Below are positions 1,599 through 23,889 of a stretch of DNA of 28,368 nt, piece by piece. Position numbers and translations under genes: made by a program. Each line of letters opens with the position of its first letter. Position 1 is the first letter of the stretch. Source of the stretch: a virus (taxonomy: Duplodnaviria; Caudoviricetes); IMG/VR virus record IMGVR_UViG_3300012942_000111, positions 1 to 28,368 of that record, one strand, 5' to 3'. The notes below the pieces were generated by a model, which had not been told where the DNA came from, searched no databases, and saw nothing but the letters and a program-made list of their open reading frames with translations.

Positions 1599-3647
1599 AT
1601 GCCTTTTGAATTTAATAATACATTGGTGGTAAGATATGAAGAATTAGTTCCAACATTCTTCCCGTCTTATGATGCTTTGGCGAAGCGCATTCAGCGCTAT
1701 GAAAAAAAAGACTATGGTATTAAAGCTGTCCAGCGCGGGGGGAATGGCCGCGAACTACTGATCAGCTTTGACAGCCTGGACAAAGACGTCCGGGATGCCA
1801 TTGGAGACCCCCGCAAAGCCAAACATTTATTGGAAAATTGGTACAAAACCGACGATAACGCGGTCAAATTTTTTACCAAATTCGAATTTGATGACGGCGA
1901 CGGCCTTTCCCTTAAACACATTGAAGAATATATAACCAACGCATCGGTTCTTTCTGCCTGTGTTGAACTGAAAAAAGCCCGTGAATACGAGCGCAAAACC
2001 AAAAATCACTCCTTAAAAGGCGTAATGCACACAATTTGTCAGGATGCGCATGGATTTCAGACCGTTTTAAAGGTCAAGTATGACATTCAGCACACTTTGC
2101 CTGAATCAGACCGCCGGTTTAAAGAAGCATTCCGTGCATTCACCAATTCTACCGATGGGGGTTACAATTACGATAGCCTGATCTCTGGAAAGCTCCGCAA
2201 TCAGAATTCCAAGAAGGTCACCGACGAGGTTCTTGATCTGTTAAACAATCTGTTTAGCGACAATAAAGGAAAACCCACCAGAACGGAAATAAGCAACCGG
2301 TTTGAAGCCTTTTTATCTGGATATATGGAGGTGATCAACCCAGAAACTGGCGAATTGTTCGACCCTAAACAGTTCCAGCCCCTATCCGACGCCACAATTA
2401 TCAATTATCTCGGCAAATGGGAGGATTATATCGCCACTTCGCTCAAGCGTTCCGGCAACCGACAGATTTATATGGGGAAATTCAACCCTCACCACAGCCT
2501 AATCAAGCCACAATTTGCAGGTTCTATTATTTCCGTTGATGACCGCCAGCCGCCATTCAAATATGCTGGCAATGATCGGGCGTGGTTCTATATGGGTATT
2601 GATCTGGGCAGCGAGGCTTTTACTTGCTGGGTGCATGGCAAAAGTAAAGAAGGCATCATTATAGAATTTTATCGTCAAATGGTGCGCAATTATACGGAAT
2701 GGGGTATTTGCTTGCCTGCTGAACTGGAAGCGGAAGCCAGTTTGAATTCTGCATTCCAAAACACGTTCCTGCGGAATGGTGCATTGTTTAACAATGTTCG
2801 CATCGAAGCTAATAATGCACGGGGTAAGCGCATTGAAAGGTATTGGTCAACTTTAAGATATCAATTTGAAAAAGACAAAGAAGGGTGGCTTGCTAGGCCA
2901 CACGCAAAGAAAGAAGATAACCAGGGTGGTCCAAGCGATGTGCCGGTTATTCCTTACACTCAGATAGTGGAAAATAGCCTGCGGGATATCGAAGATTGGA
3001 ATAATATGCCGCATTCAGATTACCCAGACAAAACTCGTTGGGAGGTCTTTATGGAAATGCAACACCCAGACCTCCAACCTACTAACTGGAAGGCAATCCT
3101 GCCATTTTTGGGGTTCAGAACAGAAACCAGCTGCAATGCCGGAATTATCCGCTTTCAGAATAAAGAATTCCTGCTTGGTCATGATGGCAAGGTCTCCACT
3201 GGGGAGACTCTAATTAAGAGCATGAAGCTGGTGGAAGGCCAAAAGGTTGACGTCTACTGGCTGGATGATAACAACGGTAATGTTTTAAAGGCCCTAGTCT
3301 ATCTCAGGGGAGGCGATAAGTACATCTGTGAAGCAGTGGCCAAGCCAATGTATTCCCGCGCAAAAATTGAACGGACATCCGATCAGGAAAAGGCACGTGA
3401 GGTAATGAGTGCTTATGCCAATACAATCTCCTCCTATGCCCGCCGTCGCATGAGCCAATTGCAGGACTTGGTTATTATCGACCATCGTGAAAAGACCCTG
3501 AATAGAAAGTTTGTCATCAAAGACCTCGATAAACGCAAAAGGCCGGTTGATACAGAAACCGAAGAAGTAGAAACCCTACCTGATCTCCCGGACGAAATGG
3601 AAGCCCAGGTTAATCATAAATCTAAATCCCTTAAAGACAGATTCTAA
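1599..3647 (+). CDS. MuA-like DDE transposase
   Basis: 682 aa; integrase-core-like motifs ISVDD, GIDLGSE, NARGKRIERYW, IEDWNN; followed closely by a MuB-like ATPase. Confidence 0.88.
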   Translation: MPFEFNNTLVVRYEELVPTFFPSYDALAKRIQRYEKKDYGIKAVQRGGNGRELLISFDSLDKDVRDAIGDPRKAKHLLENWYKTDDNAVKFFTKFEFDDGDGLSLKHIEEYITNASVLSACVELKKAREYERKTKNHSLKGVMHTICQDAHGFQTVLKVKYDIQHTLPESDRRFKEAFRAFTNSTDGGYNYDSLISGKLRNQNSKKVTDEVLDLLNNLFSDNKGKPTRTEISNRFEAFLSGYMEVINPETGELFDPKQFQPLSDATIINYLGKWEDYIATSLKRSGNRQIYMGKFNPHHSLIKPQFAGSIISVDDRQPPFKYAGNDRAWFYMGIDLGSEAFTCWVHGKSKEGIIIEFYRQMVRNYTEWGICLPAELEAEASLNSAFQNTFLRNGALFNNVRIEANNARGKRIERYWSTLRYQFEKDKEGWLARPHAKKEDNQGGPSDVPVIPYTQIVENSLRDIEDWNNMPHSDYPDKTRWEVFMEMQHPDLQPTNWKAILPFLGFRTETSCNAGIIRFQNKEFLLGHDGKVSTGETLIKSMKLVEGQKVDVYWLDDNNGNVLKALVYLRGGDKYICEAVAKPMYSRAKIERTSDQEKAREVMSAYANTISSYARRRMSQLQDLVIIDHREKTLNRKFVIKDLDKRKRPVDTETEEVETLPDLPDEMEAQVNHKSKSLKDRF

Positions 3648-8213: not shown

Positions 8214-8693
8214 ATGCAAGAAGTTTTAACAATCGAAAAAAAGAATGCCATTGTGGCCCACAATGAGGCTAACGACAAAGGCAAAAAAATGCTTGAGAAC
8301 CTATTTGGAAGAAAGATATTCTTGGGCAATGTAATGGACAGGATTAAAACCTTTGAAGATGCATGCGCTGAATTAGGTATCCACTGGGGAGACGCCTGCC
8401 CAAAAGTTCAAAAGAATGGCGACTATGGGGCAATTGTATCTTTCGCACAAGCACTGATCGTCACCAGAGCGCTTAATGAAGGTTGGAAGCCTGATTTTAA
8501 CAACGGCCAATGGGATAAGCATTACCCCTACTTTGATATGCGTTCTTCCGCTGGCGGTTTCCGGTTCTACGGTTCCGGTTGCGTCGACGACGGTACGTTC
8601 GTCGGCGCCCGCCTTTGCTTTAAATCCGCAGAGTTGGCAAGATATGCCGGAACTCAATTTGAGGACATTTATAAGGGTTTTATGACCTTCTAG
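8214..8693 (+). CDS. DGR target protein 1 (159 aa)
   Basis: Contains VR1 in frame (SSAGGFRFYGSGCVDDGTFVGARLC); paralogous to the next ORF. Confidence 0.93.
   Translation: MQEVLTIEKKNAIVAHNEANDKGKKMLENLFGRKIFLGNVMDRIKTFEDACAELGIHWGDACPKVQKNGDYGAIVSFAQALIVTRALNEGWKPDFNNGQWDKHYPYFDMRSSAGGFRFYGSGCVDDGTFVGARLCFKSAELARYAGTQFEDIYKGFMTF
8542..8619 (+). repeat. DGR variable repeat VR1
   Basis: 78-nt ungapped match to TR 9171-9248; 15 mismatches, all at TR adenines. Confidence 0.96.
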
Positions 8694-8742
8694 GTCGCAT
8701 TATTATACTACACATCAGTTTTTAATCATTAATAAACACAAA

Positions 8743-9138
8743 ATGAAAATTTCAGAAAAAAGCACACAAGCCTTTGCAGCGGCTTGTCAAAAGTTGAAAA
8801 TTGGGACACAACTCCCAAATGTAAGCATGGTAAGACCGGATTTAGGTCTTTATCTGACGGCTCATTACATGCTTGCCGTAATAATTGAAGCGGGTAAGGA
8901 TGGGAAAGAATATGACATTACCAACCATTCAAAACCGAAATGGCAACCTTGGCACGTTGCAGATGACGGATATACTCCTGGTTCTTCCGCTGGCGGTTTC
9001 CGGTTCAGCGTTTCCGTTTACGTCTACGACCTTACGTTCGTCGGCGCCCGCCTTTGTTCGAATAGTGAAGAGGAGTCCGACGAAAACGCCCAGAACTATC
9101 CAGATCTCTGGGAAATCATTACCCTGATCGTCAAATAA
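8743..9138 (+). CDS. DGR target protein 2 (131 aa)
   Basis: Contains VR2 in frame (SSAGGFRFSVSVYVYDLTFVGARLC). Confidence 0.93.
   Translation: MKISEKSTQAFAAACQKLKIGTQLPNVSMVRPDLGLYLTAHYMLAVIIEAGKDGKEYDITNHSKPKWQPWHVADDGYTPGSSAGGFRFSVSVYVYDLTFVGARLCSNSEEESDENAQNYPDLWEIITLIVK
8981..9058 (+). repeat. DGR variable repeat VR2
   Basis: 78-nt ungapped match to TR; 14 mismatches, all at TR adenines. Confidence 0.96.
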
Positions 9139-9148
9139 GATAAAAATA

Positions 9149-9332
9149 GGTTGTGTGCTGTTGGCCTGTAGTTCTTCCGCTGGCAGTTTCCGGTTCAACG
9201 ATTCCGATTACGACAACGACAATACGAACGTCAGCGCCCACCTTAGATGTTTTTGTACAGCACAGACCTTGCCCGCATGGCAGAAAATAACACTTTTTAA
9301 AAGGACGTTGGTAGCGAAAGCGAAAGCGTCCT
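9149..9332 (+). ncRNA. predicted structured DGR template RNA (TR plus flanks)
   Basis: TGTGCTGT (9154-9161) pairs with ACAGCACA (9257-9264) across TR; hairpins TGCC/GGCA (9270-9282) and AGGACG/CGTCCT (9302-9332). Confidence 0.65.
9171..9248 (+). repeat. DGR template repeat TR
   Basis: Intergenic and rich in AAC/AAT/GAC/GAT (19 adenines in 78 nt); about 100 nt upstream of the RT. Confidence 0.96.
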
Positions 9333-9350
9333 GTTAAATCAAAGGCTCAA

Positions 9351-10412
9351 ATGAAACGCGAAAGCAATATATATTATAGGATTTGCAACATGGATAATCT
9401 GTATTTGGCGGATGCCATTGCGCAAAAAGGCAAATCAAAGCAATCCGACGTTATTCGGCATAACCAAAATGCTGAGAGCAACCTATTTATGCTTTATAAC
9501 ACTTTGATGGATAAGAAATATAACACTTCCGAATATTTGACCTTCACGATTCATGAACCAAAAGAACGGGTAATATTCAGATTGCCCTATTTCCCTGATA
9601 GAATTGTTCACCACGCTATTATGAATGTGCTTGAGCCAATCTTCACTAATATGTTTACCGCAGACACTTACAGCTGCATTAAAGGTAAAGGCATCCACGC
9701 CATGTCCAGAGGAATCATTAAGGCCTTAAAAGATGCGCCTAATACCGGGTATTACCTCAAATTGGACATTAAAAAGTTTTACCCATCCGTTGATCACAAA
9801 ATTTTAAAAAGCCTTCTACGTAGAAAATTCAAGGATAATGACCTATTGGATTTACTGGATGGAATAATTGATTCCGCCCCCGGACTTCCAATAGGTAATT
9901 ATTTGAGCCAATATTTTGCAAATTTCTACCTGACATATTTTGACCATTGGTTAAAGGAGGTCAAAGGTGTCCGGTATTATTTCCGCTATGCCGATGACAT
10001 GGTCATTTTCGCATCAAATAAAGCCGATTTACACAGGCTGCGGATTGATATAAGCGAATATCTTTCAAAGGAGTTGCATTTGGCCGTAAAAGGCAATTAT
10101 AAGGTATCGCCATTGGATGACAAGAGCGGCTTAGATGTGTGTGGATATGTTTTCTTCCGTCATTACACTTTAATGCGCAAAAAGAATAAGCAAAATTTTG
10201 CACGGGCTGTGGCAAAAGGCAAACCGATGCAGACGATAAACAGCTATTTGGGTTGGGCAAAGCATTGTAATAGTAAACACCTTACAAAAAAATTAATGAT
10301 TAAATATGAAAGAGTTCAACGAGCTAGGCATTACTCCTCCAGCACTCAAAACGTTTGTGGGAGACAAGATCAGCATAAAACGTGTGCTGAAAAAGAAGAT
10401 AATTATACATGA
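9351..10412 (+). CDS. DGR reverse transcriptase
   Basis: EPKER, FPDRIVHHA, LKLDIKKFYPSV, GLPIGNYLSQ (DGR-type IGxxxSQ) and YFRYADD motifs; no maturase or endonuclease domain. Confidence 0.96.
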   Translation: MKRESNIYYRICNMDNLYLADAIAQKGKSKQSDVIRHNQNAESNLFMLYNTLMDKKYNTSEYLTFTIHEPKERVIFRLPYFPDRIVHHAIMNVLEPIFTNMFTADTYSCIKGKGIHAMSRGIIKALKDAPNTGYYLKLDIKKFYPSVDHKILKSLLRRKFKDNDLLDLLDGIIDSAPGLPIGNYLSQYFANFYLTYFDHWLKEVKGVRYYFRYADDMVIFASNKADLHRLRIDISEYLSKELHLAVKGNYKVSPLDDKSGLDVCGYVFFRHYTLMRKKNKQNFARAVAKGKPMQTINSYLGWAKHCNSKHLTKKLMIKYERVQRARHYSSSTQNVCGRQDQHKTCAEKEDNYT

Positions 10413-10620
10413 TTTCGCAGTTAAGCCTTCAAAGTATGGAGCAAATAAGGACTGCCTTCATTTGCAGATTGAGTTTGAAGAAGAAAGAAGGGTGATGTTT
10501 ATTACAGCGACTTATTTGACTGAGGTACTAAATGTTATCCCCAAATCATCCTTTCCATTTGAAGCAACAATAGTAAACCCTGAAGGGTATTTTAGATTTA
10601 AACAAAAAGAGGAAAAATGA
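10306..10620 (+). CDS. small basic protein, candidate non-Avd DGR accessory factor
   Basis: Overlaps the RT 3' end by 107 nt; beta-strand-like pattern; ATGA-coupled to the next gene. The function is an inference. Confidence 0.6.
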   Translation: MKEFNELGITPPALKTFVGDKISIKRVLKKKIIIHDFAVKPSKYGANKDCLHLQIEFEEERRVMFITATYLTEVLNVIPKSSFPFEATIVNPEGYFRFKQKEEK

Positions 10621-12498: not shown

Positions 12499-12997
12499 AC
12501 ATTCTGGCCACATTGAGCTTGACCGATGCTGCTGGTGTTCTGTTGGTCACGGTTTGTGCATACCTGTCTTGCCAGTTGCATGTAAAGGTGATAGTGCGCA
12601 TTCTGATACCGTCGTCGCGGATTGCCCGGCCAAATGAAGTTCTGACAAATCCTGAATAATCCACCCCACCACTCCAGCCATGAAGGGCCTTGTATATATC
12701 CTGAATGATGTCGTAAATCCTCATTTCATTAGCTGTTAGGTCAATTGGTGCTTTTCTGCTGACGTTTTGCGTCATGTCGGCCACCGATATGACTATCTGT
12801 AATAATCCCTCCTGGACCAAATTCCCGTCGTTGGTGAATTGGCCACTCATAATATCGACCAGGGCACACGGAAATTTAACCGGTGGTCTGTCTCCGTTCA
12901 CATATAGTGATAACTGGCCCCAGTCCTGTCCAATGTATTTTAAAGCGGGAACTTCGGATTCGAGCCTACCTTCTATGTCGCTGACGATTTTTTTCAT
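12497..12997 (-). CDS. Mu gp37-like tail terminator / neck protein
   Basis: VPALKYIGQDWGQL, PPVKFPCALVD, IYKALHGW; last gene of the head operon. Confidence 0.65.
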   Translation of the reverse strand: MKKIVSDIEGRLESEVPALKYIGQDWGQLSLYVNGDRPPVKFPCALVDIMSGQFTNDGNLVQEGLLQIVISVADMTQNVSRKAPIDLTANEMRIYDIIQDIYKALHGWSGGVDYSGFVRTSFGRAIRDDGIRMRTITFTCNWQDRYAQTVTNRTPAASVKLNVARM

Positions 12998-13548
12998 TAT
13001 TTCTGTTTTAAAGCGTTATATATTTCTTTTTCCAAATCATTGATTTGCTCATCCACTGCCTTTTGTACTATTTGGTGTACTCTGGGATGGTCACCAATAA
13101 ATTGCCGAGCCGGTATCTTTATTTTGGAGCCGACTTTCATTAAAGCCAGATTCTTATAAAATTCTGCCTCTGCTGTAAGGCCCCTGTTTTTAGCGGTGTT
13201 TCTTGTGCTACCGTCCTTTTTCTTGTCCATACCACCAGTAAGCTCATAATACTTGGCCCAGAAGAATTTTTTCATCTTCATTGTTACGGTGATTTCTCCG
13301 CCTGAATTCTGAATATCAGCATATGGTTCGGTAGATTCCCAGTGTATTTCATCTGAATGAACGCTGGGGTTGATACTGCGACGTAATTTGCCGCTCCTGA
13401 TCAGCTGCGACCCTCGTGGATTGTGATGGCCTTCTTTTGGCCATGCTCGGTCAAAAAAGGCCTTTCGTTGAAAATTCCGGTCAAATTCGTCTGTTAATTC
13501 AACTTTCAAGTCAGTTAAAAGACGCTTTAAAAAACTATTATAATCCAT
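12997..13548 (-). CDS. virion morphogenesis protein (Mu gpG / P2 gpS-like)
   Basis: LIRSGKLRRSI, PYADIQNSGG, IPARQFIG motifs. Confidence 0.82.
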   Translation of the reverse strand: MDYNSFLKRLLTDLKVELTDEFDRNFQRKAFFDRAWPKEGHHNPRGSQLIRSGKLRRSINPSVHSDEIHWESTEPYADIQNSGGEITVTMKMKKFFWAKYYELTGGMDKKKDGSTRNTAKNRGLTAEAEFYKNLALMKVGSKIKIPARQFIGDHPRVHQIVQKAVDEQINDLEKEIYNALKQK

Positions 13549-13579: not shown

Positions 13580-13855
13580 ATGAATATCGAAAACTATAAT
13601 GTTGACATACAAGAACTTTTTGAATTTATTTTGACAAGAATCGCCTTAACCGATGCAAGAATAACCATATTGAGTGCCCAGGTGTCTGCTTTTTTACAAT
13701 ATCAACATCCCGACTTTGTTGAGAAGACGTCAACGGTTGCTCCAAAGCTTGAAGAAGTTGGCGCCGAACATCTTCGGTTAATGCTTGAAGGGCTTTCTCT
13801 TCAAAGTCAGGAAATGAAAGGGATGATAGTAGCCTTGATGCAGAAATCTCAATAG
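13580..13855 (+). CDS. hypothetical protein, antisense-oriented moron in the head operon
   Basis: Fills the gap between two minus-strand genes without overlap; has its own promoter element. Confidence 0.7.
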   Translation: MNIENYNVDIQELFEFILTRIALTDARITILSAQVSAFLQYQHPDFVEKTSTVAPKLEEVGAEHLRLMLEGLSLQSQEMKGMIVALMQKSQ

Positions 13856-13871
13856 TTTGCTCCATAATCTG

Positions 13872-14786
13872 TTATTTATCTTTTGTGGTTAGGGTTTTAC
13901 GTGCCGCTTCCTTATCTTCATTTCCTTTTGCCGTGTATGGATGGTTCGGCGGGAATATTACCTTTTGTTGTCCAGGGTTATATCTAAATATAGCTGCTGC
14001 ATTATTGTTGTCTTTATCCAGCCTTGTTGTGGCCTCGTCACCCAATTTATTGGCAAATTTGCTATCCGTGATGGTGTATTTGCCAGATTTAACCAGAACG
14101 GCCAGACAGCGGCATCCCCAATCATTTGGAGGATAATATTTTGTCCAAAATTTATCCGTGCGCGGGAGTGTGATATCTGCGAGCTTTTCGTGAGCTGGCC
14201 GAACGTGATCATCGCCAGCCGTCCTATATTGCAGGTCGTAATCACCCTCGGTTTGTTCCTGCTGTAGCCATTTATCGGCCATCTGAGCGGAACCGACTGC
14301 ATAGTTATACTCAGACTCCAGGTATCGTTGGTTATAATTAGAATTGATGTCGGCTATGTCTCGTTTGAACTCCTCAAAAGGCTTGATTGTCCCCTTTGTA
14401 TCTTTAAGTAGCTGAGCGGCTTCCTTCAGGGAAGCATAGGACTTCATTCCAGAAAATATAAAGATGTCGTTTTCAAACGAGTTTCTGATATTGTCAGATA
14501 TAACTGTCTTTATCTCGGACATGCTTTCTTTCAGGACATCAAATGTTGCTTTGATTAGCCCCTTAATGGGCTTCTCGGCCATCATTTTGCCGTCCATTTT
14601 GCCAGCAGCATGAATATGCTTCAAAGCCTTTTCAAAGGCTTTTTCAACCGTTTTAAAGGTCTTTTTATTGGCTGAAAGGTGGGCATGGTCACAACCTCCA
14701 AAATACAGGTTTTGGATGTTGGCATGAAGCCTATCAAATTTTAGCGGGCGAACGCTTGGCTTTCCGTCCGCCCCTACATGAAAAAA
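13872..14786 (-). CDS. MuF / gp30 (SPP1 gp7-like) minor head protein, probably reached by -1 frameshift from portal
   Basis: YRTAGDDHVRPAH, FWTKYYPPNDWGCRC motifs. The frame stays open for 54 codons upstream of the TTG at 14624, up to 14786, with no ATG. Confidence 0.85.
   Translation of the reverse strand, partial: FFHVGADGKPSVRPLKFDRLHANIQNLYFGGCDHAHLSANKKTFKTVEKAFEKALKHIHAAGKMDGKMMAEKPIKGLIKATFDVLKESMSEIKTVISDNIRNSFENDIFIFSGMKSYASLKEAAQLLKDTKGTIKPFEEFKRDIADINSNYNQRYLESEYNYAVGSAQMADKWLQQEQTEGDYDLQYRTAGDDHVRPAHEKLADITLPRTDKFWTKYYPPNDWGCRCLAVLVKSGKYTITDSKFANKLGDEATTRLDKDNNNAAAIFRYNPGQQKVIFPPNHPYTAKGNEDKEAARKTLTTKDK
14742..14786 (-). other. predicted -1 programmed ribosomal frameshift signal (portal to MuF)
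   Basis: T_TTT_TTC (14786-14780), 6-nt spacer, stem GGGCGGACG/CGTTCGCCC (14773-14765 / 14754-14746). Confidence 0.72.
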
Positions 14787-16039
14787 TCAGCAGACAGATT
14801 ATTGTTTTTCTGCTCCTCTTTTTTCTCATCTGGCGGTTGGATGGGACTTTGTCGGTTCCCAATAACTTCAATTCCGAATTTATCTTTAATCCAGTCGTCG
14901 GCGATGTCCTTATAAGGAAGCAGCCCTTTGACAAAGTCAAATAATTGTTTGATGTCCTCAGCTGGGGAAAACTCAAATGTAAGGTCACCTTTCAGAACGC
15001 CAATCTTTTGAAGTGCCGGTATAATGATGGTATTCCAGTCTGACTCCACCGATTCCATATCAGATTGGACTAGCAGCCATAAAACGTCCTGACTACTCTG
15101 GTCTTTGTTAAAACTCCCGTGCTTCGTGTCCTGGCCGATAACAGCCCCAGAAATTAGAAGGCTTATTTGGTTATCACAAAGTCTGATCAGATTGTTGTAC
15201 ACATCGCCGGTGGTGGTCACGCCATCCGCAAATTCGAACTCTTCTGTATCGTCAATGATAAACCAAGCCGCTGCTCCCATGTCGGCCATCATTTTCTCCG
15301 CTCTTCTGAGTGCGCTTGGGTCGGTGGTGTCTGTTTTCATGTACCTTGGTGGGATGCCATAGATTTCGCAGAGCTCAGACCAGCAGGATTGTGCAAATTT
15401 CTTAAATAAAACATGCGGCACGGCCTTGTTTAATAGACCCATCAGATCGTCGCTAAGGAACTCCAGCACCCACGTACCATATTCAGGCAGCATGCGATAC
15501 TCTAATGAACTGGTATCGTCTGTATAATCCCTATAGAATTTGCCAGTTTGCGGCACTATATTGGTGCGCGGTATGTTTTTTGTCCGCAATTTGTCATCTT
15601 CCCACACCAGTTCTACCGCTGAATAGCCCAGGTATTTTTTATCGAGTGCTGCTGTGGTCAGGCCCCGATAATAGGTTGATTTTTTCAGCATTTCCGTTTG
15701 TTCCTCGTCAATTTCGCCATTTGGCTTTTTGAGCGTGAATTCGCAGGTGAATAATTGCTGTTTGCGGTTTTCAATCTGGCTAGTTAATAGCGCATCCAAA
15801 GAGATATCATTTAACAACAGCTGCAAAGGCCATGTTTTTGTATCCTCCGCGCTGTTAAATTGATTGATTGCTCTTTTCCAATTACTGATATCCTGCCGGG
15901 TCATAAAAACACTCTTTTCGACCGTTGGCAGAATTCTCCGCTTTGACCCCTTGGATTCGTTGGAATTGTTGTCGGCCAGTGTCCTTGATGGCGGATTTGC
16001 GCCCTTGATGGCGGATAGAATATTATTGAGGTAACTCAT
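14774..16039 (-). CDS. portal protein (Mu gp29 / DUF935-like)
   Basis: LGYSAVEL, WSELCEIYGIPPR, QISLLISG motifs. Start moved to MSYLNN (16039), just after the gp36 stop. Confidence 0.87.
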   Translation of the reverse strand: MSYLNNILSAIKGANPPSRTLADNNSNESKGSKRRILPTVEKSVFMTRQDISNWKRAINQFNSAEDTKTWPLQLLLNDISLDALLTSQIENRKQQLFTCEFTLKKPNGEIDEEQTEMLKKSTYYRGLTTAALDKKYLGYSAVELVWEDDKLRTKNIPRTNIVPQTGKFYRDYTDDTSSLEYRMLPEYGTWVLEFLSDDLMGLLNKAVPHVLFKKFAQSCWSELCEIYGIPPRYMKTDTTDPSALRRAEKMMADMGAAAWFIIDDTEEFEFADGVTTTGDVYNNLIRLCDNQISLLISGAVIGQDTKHGSFNKDQSSQDVLWLLVQSDMESVESDWNTIIIPALQKIGVLKGDLTFEFSPAEDIKQLFDFVKGLLPYKDIADDWIKDKFGIEVIGNRQSPIQPPDEKKEEQKNNNLSADFFM

Positions 16040-16055
16040 TGTGGTACTATTTGGG

Positions 16056-16529
16056 TTATTCGTGAATGAATTTCTTTCTACTTCCAAATCGGAATGGTGT
16101 GTATTCGTCTGAACCGTTTTCCGGTGGCGCTGGAGGTGTGAGAACTGGAAGGTCAAGGGTGATATCCCCTTTATTGACTTTCTTTAAAAAATCGATGGCT
16201 CTATCGAACCGATCTTTTGCCTGATCATAAATGATGTCCAGATTGCAAAGCCGGGTGATATTCCAGAATGCTACATTTTTGCAGTATTCCAATAGCAGGG
16301 CATTGCGCTCAGTGCCAGTCGCAGCAAAGACCGCATCCACATCATAGCGAATTCTTCCATCCAGCCATTCTCTTTTATTGTTGGGTCGTAGGTAGCTTTT
16401 CACCAGGTCTACGGCTGACGAAATAGCCATGTACACAATGTCGTCGTCGTCTTCTGTTATCTGCTCAATCTGATAAGCATAAATGACCGATTTTAATTCC
16501 TCTTTTGTTAAAAATGTTGTTTCTGGCAT
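16056..16529 (-). CDS. Mu gp36 / DUF1320-like head-tail adaptor
   Basis: FLTKEEL start, AVDLVKSYL, RFDRAIDFLKKVNKG motifs. Confidence 0.8.
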   Translation of the reverse strand: MPETTFLTKEELKSVIYAYQIEQITEDDDDIVYMAISSAVDLVKSYLRPNNKREWLDGRIRYDVDAVFAATGTERNALLLEYCKNVAFWNITRLCNLDIIYDQAKDRFDRAIDFLKKVNKGDITLDLPVLTPPAPPENGSDEYTPFRFGSRKKFIHE

Positions 16530-23338: not shown

Positions 23339-23635
23339 ATGGAAGTTACAGCAGAACAAATCGCAAAATGGAAGCAGCAATACGGCAGCGTATCCAAATT
23401 AAAGCTGGCATCAGGGGAAGTCGTATATGTGCGTCAACCGACAACACAGGAAATTGAATATGCAAGTGCCAATCTCATGCAGGGAAAAACCTACACTTTT
23501 GGTATTACATTATTTAAAACCTGTCAGATCGGTGGTGACCAGATCGACGGCAAGGATGAGGCCAAAATGAGGGGTATCGCTCAGCAAATGACGTCCATTA
23601 TTGAAGTTACAGCGGTTGAGGTGGAAAAGCTTTAG
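23339..23635 (+). CDS. tail assembly chaperone (G-like)
   Basis: Between tube and tape measure; EQIAKWKQQYG; ends VEKL. Confidence 0.8.
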   Translation: MEVTAEQIAKWKQQYGSVSKLKLASGEVVYVRQPTTQEIEYASANLMQGKTYTFGITLFKTCQIGGDQIDGKDEAKMRGIAQQMTSIIEVTAVEVEKL

Positions 23636-23889
23636 CGGATGCCGATTTTGGCATTCGCGTGGCCGGGAGCGAGAAAACAGATACAATCCCGGGTAAGACT
23701 AAAGAAATGGATTTTGACGAATGGGGTCGCCAATTTAAGCAATGGGTGGACAATGTTCGGAAACTAAACGCCCAATTACGTTATTACTACGGTGTAGAAC
23801 CCGGCAATTTAAGTATAACAGAATGGGCGTTTAGAGTAAATGAAATGAAATGGATTCGCCAGGAAGAGGCAAAGCAAAACAGTAATTAG
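23620..23889 (+). CDS. tail assembly chaperone frameshift extension (T-like), -1 frame
   Basis: -1 frame opens at 23620 after a TGA, overlaps G_GAA_AAG (23623-23629) and ends immediately before the tape measure ATG; hairpin at 23635-23658. Confidence 0.7.
   Translation, partial: GGKALADADFGIRVAGSEKTDTIPGKTKEMDFDEWGRQFKQWVDNVRKLNAQLRYYYGVEPGNLSITEWAFRVNEMKWIRQEEAKQNSN

Follow-up and report, generated by a model that had tools for sequence, protein, structure and literature searches.

How is the MuF minor head protein made when its reading frame has no ATG near its beginning? This question is raised by a stretch of viral DNA of 28,368 nucleotides (nt), hereafter the window, which corresponds to positions 1 to 28,368 of the IMG/VR record IMGVR_UViG_3300012942_000111 (Caudoviricetes). 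On the minus strand, a Mu-type portal gene ends with GCT GAT TTT TTC ATG TAG, and the MuF frame follows in the −1 phase. A first-pass annotation of the sequence had proposed that −1 frameshifting joins portal to MuF. The slippery heptamer, the covariation of the stem, natural in-frame fusions and the lack of a conserved start codon near the junction all support this proposal. On such comparative grounds, we assign a probability of roughly 0.88 to a programmed −1 ribosomal frameshift at the portal end that yields a portal-MuF fusion. The elements concerned are the following.

14774-16039, minus strand: Mu-type portal gene, 421 residues, C-terminus ...ADFFM-stop (open reading frame; PF06074, E value 1e-66; phrog_113)
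14787-14789, minus strand: TGA closing the −1 frame directly 5' of the heptamer (sequence; not conserved as such)
14786-14780, minus strand: slippery heptamer U_UUU_UUC (T_TTT_TTC), Phe-Phe codons in the portal frame (sequence)
14779-14774, minus strand: 6-nt spacer ATGTAG, consisting of the final portal codon and the stop codon TAG (sequence)
14746-14773, minus strand: predicted stimulatory hairpin of 9 base pairs (bp) with a 10-nt loop, extendable to 14776/14742 (folding, arm covariation)
13872-14786, minus strand: −1 frame of 304 codons, encoding a Cys/His-containing linker of ~40 residues followed by a short-type MuF without C-terminal extension (PF04233)

Sequence inspection and folding placed the heptamer, the 9-bp stem with its 10-nt loop, and the spacer at the positions noted earlier. 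The −1 frame indeed opens at 14786 after the TGA and runs for 304 codons to 13872. Its first ATG is codon 64, in agreement with the earlier statement that roughly the first 60 codons contain none. A fusion of ~720 residues had been predicted, which is about the right size; the exact value is 722 residues (~82 kDa), counted from the portal ATG at 16039, from which the portal itself has 421 residues. The stem arms, GGGCGGACG (14773-14765) and CGTTCGCCC (14754-14746), include one G-U pair and can be extended by UAG/CUA. The hairpin folds with −17.2 kcal/mol (z-score −2.4), and 4 of 200 shuffled sequences folded equally well; including the extension, the values are −18.7 kcal/mol and −3.2, a stability reached by none of 200 shuffles. 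Scanning the whole window for XXXYYYZ followed after 5-9 nt by a strong stem returned three sites, the portal end being one of them. The decisive evidence that the portal site is more than a chance occurrence is its conservation, as judged from related sequences. Rfam gave two matches far under the gathering score and none on the hairpin. The promoter and terminator scan performed at chance level, and the hairpin is absent from its terminator list.

We assembled 161 loci by similarity (80 from genomes, 80 from viral contigs, and the window). A portal stop codon was present in 159 of them, which formed 115 clusters at 90% identity, each represented by one locus. The MuF frame lay in the −1 phase in 99 clusters, was fused in frame in 11, lay in +1 in one, and was not seen in four. 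As anticipated from TTTTTTC in the window, the portal 3' ends of relatives carry a conserved heptamer of the type X_XXU_UUN (111 of 115 clusters). Within the −1 class, U_UUU_UUC was found 79 times, U_UUU_UUU nine times, A_AAU_UUU eight times and C_CCU_UUC once, while two clusters had none. The stretch of the −1 frame between heptamer and MuF was open in all 97 cases (97/97). By comparison, the −1 frame was shut at the codon of the window's TGA in 18/97 relatives and extended upstream by a median of four open codons. A single codon separates the heptamer from the stop codon in 87 of the 101 non-fused clusters that bear a heptamer. Because each locus was allotted one heptamer by a rule favouring the one nearest to the stop, we also counted the codons of Phe-Phe pairs without this rule. 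Pairs in the last 22 codons were encoded as T_TTT_TTY in 92/92 cases, versus 3/33 pairs inside the portal cores, and TTC makes up only 521 of the 1723 Phe codons of the cores. The residue preceding the pair varies (D, S, G, N and seven others), and its third codon base stays T. At the protein level, Phe-Phe occurs within the final eight residues in 115 of the best 120 homologues (of 2073). The T run comprises six T in 79 of 111 clusters, seven or eight in 24, and three or four in eight. Heptamer and hairpin together were present at 79/104 non-fused portal ends versus 0/710 ends of other long frames in the same loci. A motif resembling a Shine-Dalgarno sequence precedes the site in 20/111 clusters. 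Two loci from a prophage of Sphingobacterium psychroaquaticum (L024 and L118) have a premature TGA in the portal gene and an intact junction site.

The hairpin is conserved in position as well as in pairing. Its stem opens at the seventh base after the heptamer, i.e., after a 6-nt spacer, in 104/111 clusters. A helix of at least 6 bp starts at spacer 6 in 95/111 clusters and at spacers 0-4 in at most 13. The mean folding energy of 45-nt windows is about −6 kcal/mol upstream, with a minimum of −16.8 kcal/mol at offset 6, beyond which it is again about −7 kcal/mol. At stem pair 2, C-G occurs in 81 clusters and G-C in 20; at pair 3, the counts are 82 and 19. Counted without folding, the 3' arm GGGC follows the 5' arm GCCC in 75/76 cases and the 5' arm GGGC in 0/18, while GCCC or GTCC follows the 5' arm GGGC in 17/18 cases versus 5/76 after GCCC. 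The arm type switches at least ten times on the portal tree. Thus, the compensatory stem changes for which the first-pass annotation had suggested looking do occur: the arms swap together, as GCCC...GGGC or GGGC...GCCC.

To describe the −1 frame itself, three further features are needed.

14103-14375, minus strand: Pfam Phage_Mu_F match, residues 138-228 of the −1 frame (PF04233, E value 1e-10)
14622-14624, minus strand: TTG, codon 55, the MuF start according to open reading frame callers; not conserved (a start codon in 3/70 aligned sequences)
14595-14597, minus strand: first ATG of the −1 frame, codon 64 (ATG in 2/70 aligned sequences)

The alignment comprised the window and 69 forward-type frames, i.e., frames in the −1 phase, with the CRC motif. 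Both closest relatives, L001 and L002, have TTA in place of the TTG at 14624 but retain the ATG of codon 64. Start codons are thus rare at these two positions in the 70 frames, and none is conserved near the junction. The first ATG of the −1 frames occurs at a median of 97 codons and past codon 50 in 74/97 frames; the first ATG, GTG or TTG is scattered. Upstream of the candidate starts, 919 codons compared in 21 disjoint pairs differed at 462 third, 280 first and 208 second positions. P10, Y28, C32, L37 and A54, all upstream of the candidate starts, are at least 90% conserved among the 70 sequences. Because of this third-position bias and these conserved residues, we regard the region 5' of the candidate starts as behaving like coding sequence. 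An AlphaFold model of the −1 frame had a confidence score (predicted local distance difference test) of 87, with low values for residues 1-40 and values of 88-97 for a helix at residues 41-61. In the free-standing MuF of phage FPSV-S1, residue 23 aligns to residue 62 of the −1 frame, which places its start near residue 40. The MuF of phage lotta aligns from residue 101 only. Neither sequence search nor Foldseek retrieved a solved MuF relative. The Pfam search found no second domain in the 304 residues, so the window's MuF has no recognizable C-terminal toxin extension; frames of at most 330 residues make up 22/101 of the forward type. The trans-frame linker (14786-14670, minus strand) carries a Cys/His cluster, which is possibly a metal or cleavage site, and a loose pattern of Cys/His pairs recurs in 97/107 homologues. 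The CRC motif is absent from 24 forward-type frames (including L007, L019-L021, L023, L024, L089, L101, L106, L112 and L154). Where GWxCRC would be expected, those inspected have HYNCR or HFGER as a variant MuF motif, and many are from Sphingobacteriales.

The first-pass annotation had also suggested a search for natural in-frame portal-MuF fusions. Such fusions exist in the 11 clusters mentioned above, and they retain Phe-Phe at the junction. In ten of the 11, the signal is present in reversed form. Nine of these clusters have T_TTT_TTT, a 6-nt spacer and a GCCC stem; here the zero frame runs on into MuF, and the −1 frame meets a stop after 20-41 codons. Prophages of the reversed type include those of Pedobacter arcticus (L068) and Cecembia rubra (L029). 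The tenth cluster, L127, has an imperfect heptamer together with the stem and a −1 stop. The exception is L041 (4160-4200), from a Flavobacterium covae chromosome, in which one extra T on the forward layout creates a 722-codon in-frame portal-MuF gene; this T is either an assembly error or a mutation. The reversed site is also present in the 853-residue "portal" of the Porphyromonas gingivalis phage phage007a. Related P. gingivalis-like clusters have it in 12/12 cases with MuF in view, the −1 stop following after 18-36 codons, and one further cluster is truncated. A search with the reversed-type MuF returned 80 loci, 77 of them with a portal gene upstream, in 41 clusters, several of which overlap the earlier loci. 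The site was present in 24/28 fused clusters (L380 being doubtful), in 5/10 clusters of the −1 type and in 0/3 of the +1 type. Seven of the nine reversed-type MuF proteins scanned carry PBECR2.

The hairpin length is 2 modulo 3 at 9/9 near reversed sites and 0 or 1 at 82/92 forward sites. Because of this difference, the sequences suggest that polarity flipped through an insertion or deletion within the hairpin combined with loss of the stop codon. Five polarity changes were counted on the portal tree, and five origins of the reversed form were considered on this basis. On MuF trees, built from 105 rows (24 without CRC motif dropped) and from 128 rows (L017 dropped), these were reduced to two changes, leading to clades of 19 and 2. 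All polarity trees were calculated with FastTree and gave long-branch warnings, so the direction and number of origins are soft. Because the MuF tree requires fewer changes than the portal tree, the junction seems to travel with MuF. An initial rule that U_UUU_UUU marks the reversed and U_UUU_UUC the forward form (10/10 versus 79/97) was dropped, since 10/12 P. gingivalis-like reversed sites use U_UUU_UUC. Fused genes keep a signal that would cut the product short, and split genes keep a signal that would join the two frames. Hence, both the short portal and portal-MuF appear to be kept under selection.

According to the proposed mechanism, two proteins would be made from one start codon, the 421-residue portal (~48 kDa) and a predicted 722-residue fusion of portal, linker and MuF. 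At the predicted junction, ...ADFF of the portal would continue directly with HVGADGK. The ribosome would pause at the stem while positioned on the slippery site. The two Phe tRNAs would slip in tandem from UUU UUC to UUU UUU, the portal stop lying one codon past the site, and translation would continue into MuF. Motifs of the class H_HH.U_UU.Y are among the efficient ones in Escherichia coli (PMC4066793, in part; sources marked in this way are cited from a portion of their text). The short portal and the fusion may further co-assemble in the portal ring. MuF, in relatives together with its C-terminal domain, would then enter the head covalently attached, at a dose determined by the shift rate. 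Covalent attachment would thereby achieve what SPP1 does through gp6-gp7 binding. SPP1 gp7 binds the portal, is present in 1-2 copies per capsid, and raises infectivity (PMC5576092 and PMC6316719, both in part); in the sources consulted, portal association at this copy number is known for SPP1 alone. By analogy with gp7, the shift may set the MuF copy number in the ring. The fusion may be the minority product, which would fit mass spectrometry of hankyphage particles with three MuF versus 20 portal peptides (PMC12135933, table S6, in part). In the relatives with reversed polarity, the unshifted product would be the fusion, and a shift would end translation ~16-41 codons later to give the short portal. 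The existence of these relatives suggests that the product ratio is perhaps not very lopsided.

A broader picture is tentative, and we consider it somewhat less probable than its opposite. Mu-like phages of Bacteroidota would build a mixed ring of short portal and portal-MuF, with the frameshift as a dial. This dial would have been reversed at least twice with the signal kept, and shifting would be so efficient that the unshifted product can be either of the two. The MuF module and its junction, often with a PBECR nuclease-like tail, would pass as a cassette from one portal lineage to another, and the cargo per virion would be set by the shift rate.

Several explanations compete with frameshifting. 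MuF could be a separate protein started internally, at the TTG at 14624, the ATG at 14597, or a Met near residue 100 in relatives, with the hairpin merely coupling translation or protecting the mRNA. In distant phages, MuF does have a start of its own, genome annotators place the start internally, and ATG64 persists in the two closest relatives. Internal initiation would leave T_TTT_TTY in 92/92 pairs, the fixed −1 phase and the fixed 6-nt spacer unexplained, as well as the coding conservation upstream and the signal inside in-frame fusions. Moreover, L001 and L002 have TTA at the position of TTG55, the window encodes Ile at residue 100, and all three candidate starts would cut into or remove the predicted helix 41-61. 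As a replacement for the shift, an internal start is thus improbable, although it may exist in addition to it. Still less probable is slippage of RNA polymerase on the T run, by which some mRNAs would gain one U and yield the fusion through ordinary translation. MuF would come into frame with one additional U, just as it does with the extra T of L041, and runs of seven or eight T occur in 24/111 clusters. However, the run comprises six T in 79 clusters and only three or four in 8/111, where A_AAU_UUU or C_CCU_UUC keep XXXYYYZ without a long run. The run is also locked to the codon phase and followed by structure at ribosome-entry distance. Efficient slippage has been reported for runs of nine and was undetectable at T5C5 without context (PMC5009743, in part). 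The least credible explanation, with only a marginal chance of being correct, is a sequencing error, a decayed fusion gene, or an intrinsic terminator in place of the hairpin. The site is a homopolymer, L041, L092 and L093 show insertions or deletions nearby, and the assembly pieces of the best-matching sequencing run, perhaps the source sample, end at the site. No row with an insertion or deletion was found in four contig runs, but the pieces end at the site, so that this gives no independent support. The same phase nevertheless occurs in 99/115 clusters, complete genomes included, and the six T are identical in L001 and L002 (93% and 81% portal identity), which speaks against the homopolymer error considered earlier. 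As to a terminator, the U run precedes the stem, a T tract (at least five T in the next 8 nt) lies behind it in only 4/105 stems examined, and the terminator scan did not list it.

Some observations weigh against the frameshift itself or against its generality. The sampled loci are related and were chosen by similarity, so that the counts are not independent events. ATG occupies the residue-100 column in 50/70 aligned MuF frames (Ile in the window), so that many relatives may make a second MuF from an internal start. In phages lotta, FPSV-S1, Mushu and Villandry, MuF lies in the +1 phase and begins at an ATG of its own. The hairpin is missing from L016 and L025, whose junctions contain an ATG. 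In hankyphage p00, an ATG overlaps the portal stop; its relatives L309 and L316 are without that ATG. In the search with the reversed-type MuF, no site was found by rule in 4/28 fused, 5/10 −1 and 3/3 +1 clusters. Hankyphage MuF was recovered from the 250-85 kDa gel slice; small proteins such as Gam and the adaptor were found there too, making the slice non-discriminating (PMC12135933, in part).

Beyond the initial set, p00 and its relatives have the forward site in 4/4 clusters (81 loci), as do phages TCUEAP3 and MT836506. The portals of the p00-like phages and TCUEAP3 share the signal at ~25% portal identity. MT835523 has a fused portal-MuF gene in which no site was found by eye. Judging from these sequences, the predicted shift device is common in the group, though not universal. 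In Peternella_1 (L163:4100-4140) and fF4 (L166:4090-4128), MuF lies in −1 behind A-rich heptamers (A_AAA_AAA) with weaker structure and no ATG near the junction; this is possibly the same fusion achieved with a different slippery motif.

C-terminal extension by a late shift is known from other phage structural genes. In capsid or tail proteins of T3/T7 (gp10), Lactobacillus phage A2 and Listeria phages A118/A500 (−1) and in SPP1 gp17.1* (+1), a set proportion of the subunits likewise gains an extra domain (PMC5009743 and PMC6316719, both in part). Here, in contrast, it is the portal that would be extended, and the domain gained would be MuF, which normally has its own gene. The first 300,000 characters of the review PMC5009743 do not contain the word "portal". 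The tail chaperone pair G/GT of lambda, and SPP1 17.5, predicted to shift at UUUUUUC, also combine a heptamer near the stop with a −1 fusion, and the SPP1 heptamer is identical to that of the portal site. The G/GT products are assembly chaperones, whereas the portal site joins two head proteins (PMC6316719, in part). As in dnaX, where one signal gives the long tau and the short gamma, a single signal would provide long and short products; some bacteria appear to have the opposite dnaX polarity, and the review connects ready reversibility with an efficiency near 50% (PMC5009743, in part). Unlike the portal site with U_UUU_UUY and a Shine-Dalgarno-like motif in 20/111 clusters, dnaX is a cellular replisome gene with A_AAA_AAG. 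In IS3/IS911, a heptamer and downstream structure fuse orfA to orfB, and U_UU.U_UU.C is among the insertion sequence motifs (PMC4066793, in part). There, the shift controls transposase, whereas the portal site would serve virion assembly.

In-frame portal-MuF genes have been described in Microbacterium phage clusters EA3/5/8 and EB, and portal-MuF-PBECR proteins are also known (PMC7302621 and PMC5512222, both in part). Like SPP1 gp6-gp7, they indicate that portal and MuF tolerate fusion or pair, as is proposed here. The consulted portions of PMC7302621, PMC5512222 and PMC5576092 describe plain fusions or a non-covalent pair and mention no recoding. Most of the Bacteroidota fusions analysed here, unlike plain fusions, retain a shift signal through which the short portal would be regained. 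No description of a portal-MuF frameshift was found in searches of the open-access PMC and bioRxiv literature, subscription papers lying mostly outside this scope. It is unmentioned in the accessible portions of PMC2628397, PMC10367356, PMC7911831 and PMC8776804, and the portions of the GeneTack paper (PMC3711429) covering the main text and two supplements contain neither portal nor DUF935. PRFect lists MuF-like genes among "false positives" (PMC10885494, section 19, in part). The nearest published statement is in the same source, namely the general remark that frameshifting in one genome may join genes that exist as a fusion in another. Thus, the mechanism is known, and its location at the portal-MuF junction and its reversible polarity are unreported in the literature searched.

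If the proposal is correct, the phage proteins made by recoding would include the portal, which is central to DNA packaging and ejection, and hankyphage, widespread in the gut, and prophages of P. gingivalis would be among the phages concerned. The site would offer a handle on MuF entry and copy number: one silent change in the heptamer would remove MuF, and one in-frame change would render all portals fused. The two polarities would constitute a natural experiment on the evolution of frameshift signals. The MuF starts annotated in these genomes are probably wrong, and annotations of fused portal genes would miss the short product. Should the mixed-ring picture also hold, many annotated "fused portal" genes would be recoded genes.

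The record has an estimated completeness of 53%. According to Pfam, the minus-strand block consists of adaptor (PF07030), Mu-type portal (PF06074), MuF frame (PF04233) and a neck gene. The two flanking genes are as follows.

16056-16529, minus strand: Mu gp36-like head-tail adaptor, in the same block upstream of the portal gene (PF07030; phrog_195)
12997-13548, minus strand: neck/tail-completion gene, downstream of MuF (PF05069; phrog_26)

With portal, MuF, gp36 and neck all present by Pfam and phrog matches, the head module is Mu-type. The open reading frame at 1599-3647, considered as a candidate for a DDE transposase, has no Pfam match. The PF04233 domain directly 3' of the portal gene supports placement in the MuF/SPP1 gp7 family, a context that matches PMC5576092 (in part). 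A portal profile search of solved structures led to 8RKA and 9KHX. Named portal homologues are from Niabella, Pedobacter, Flavobacterium and Sphingobacterium; among the 80 genome loci, 69 are labelled with six Bacteroidota orders, nine with no order, and two otherwise. Between MuF and the neck gene lies a 91-residue open reading frame on the opposite strand (13580-13855, plus strand), and p00 also has an opposite-strand gene in this place.

A second likely −1 site was noticed at 23623-23657 (plus strand). G_GAA_AAG is followed by CTT TAG and a 9-bp hairpin, with the same 6-nt geometry, and the −1 frame is open to 23889. The site occupies the position of the tail chaperone pair, 5' of a tape-measure-like gene; the z-score of its hairpin is only −1.0. 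Finally, the window contains a likely diversity-generating retroelement (8214-10620, plus strand) with a reverse transcriptase at 9351-10412 (PF00078) and a template-like repeat at ~9170-9255. Two variable copies of this repeat lie at the ends of the open reading frames 8214-8693 and 8743-9138, differing mostly at A positions. These candidate targets are located among early genes, not tail genes.

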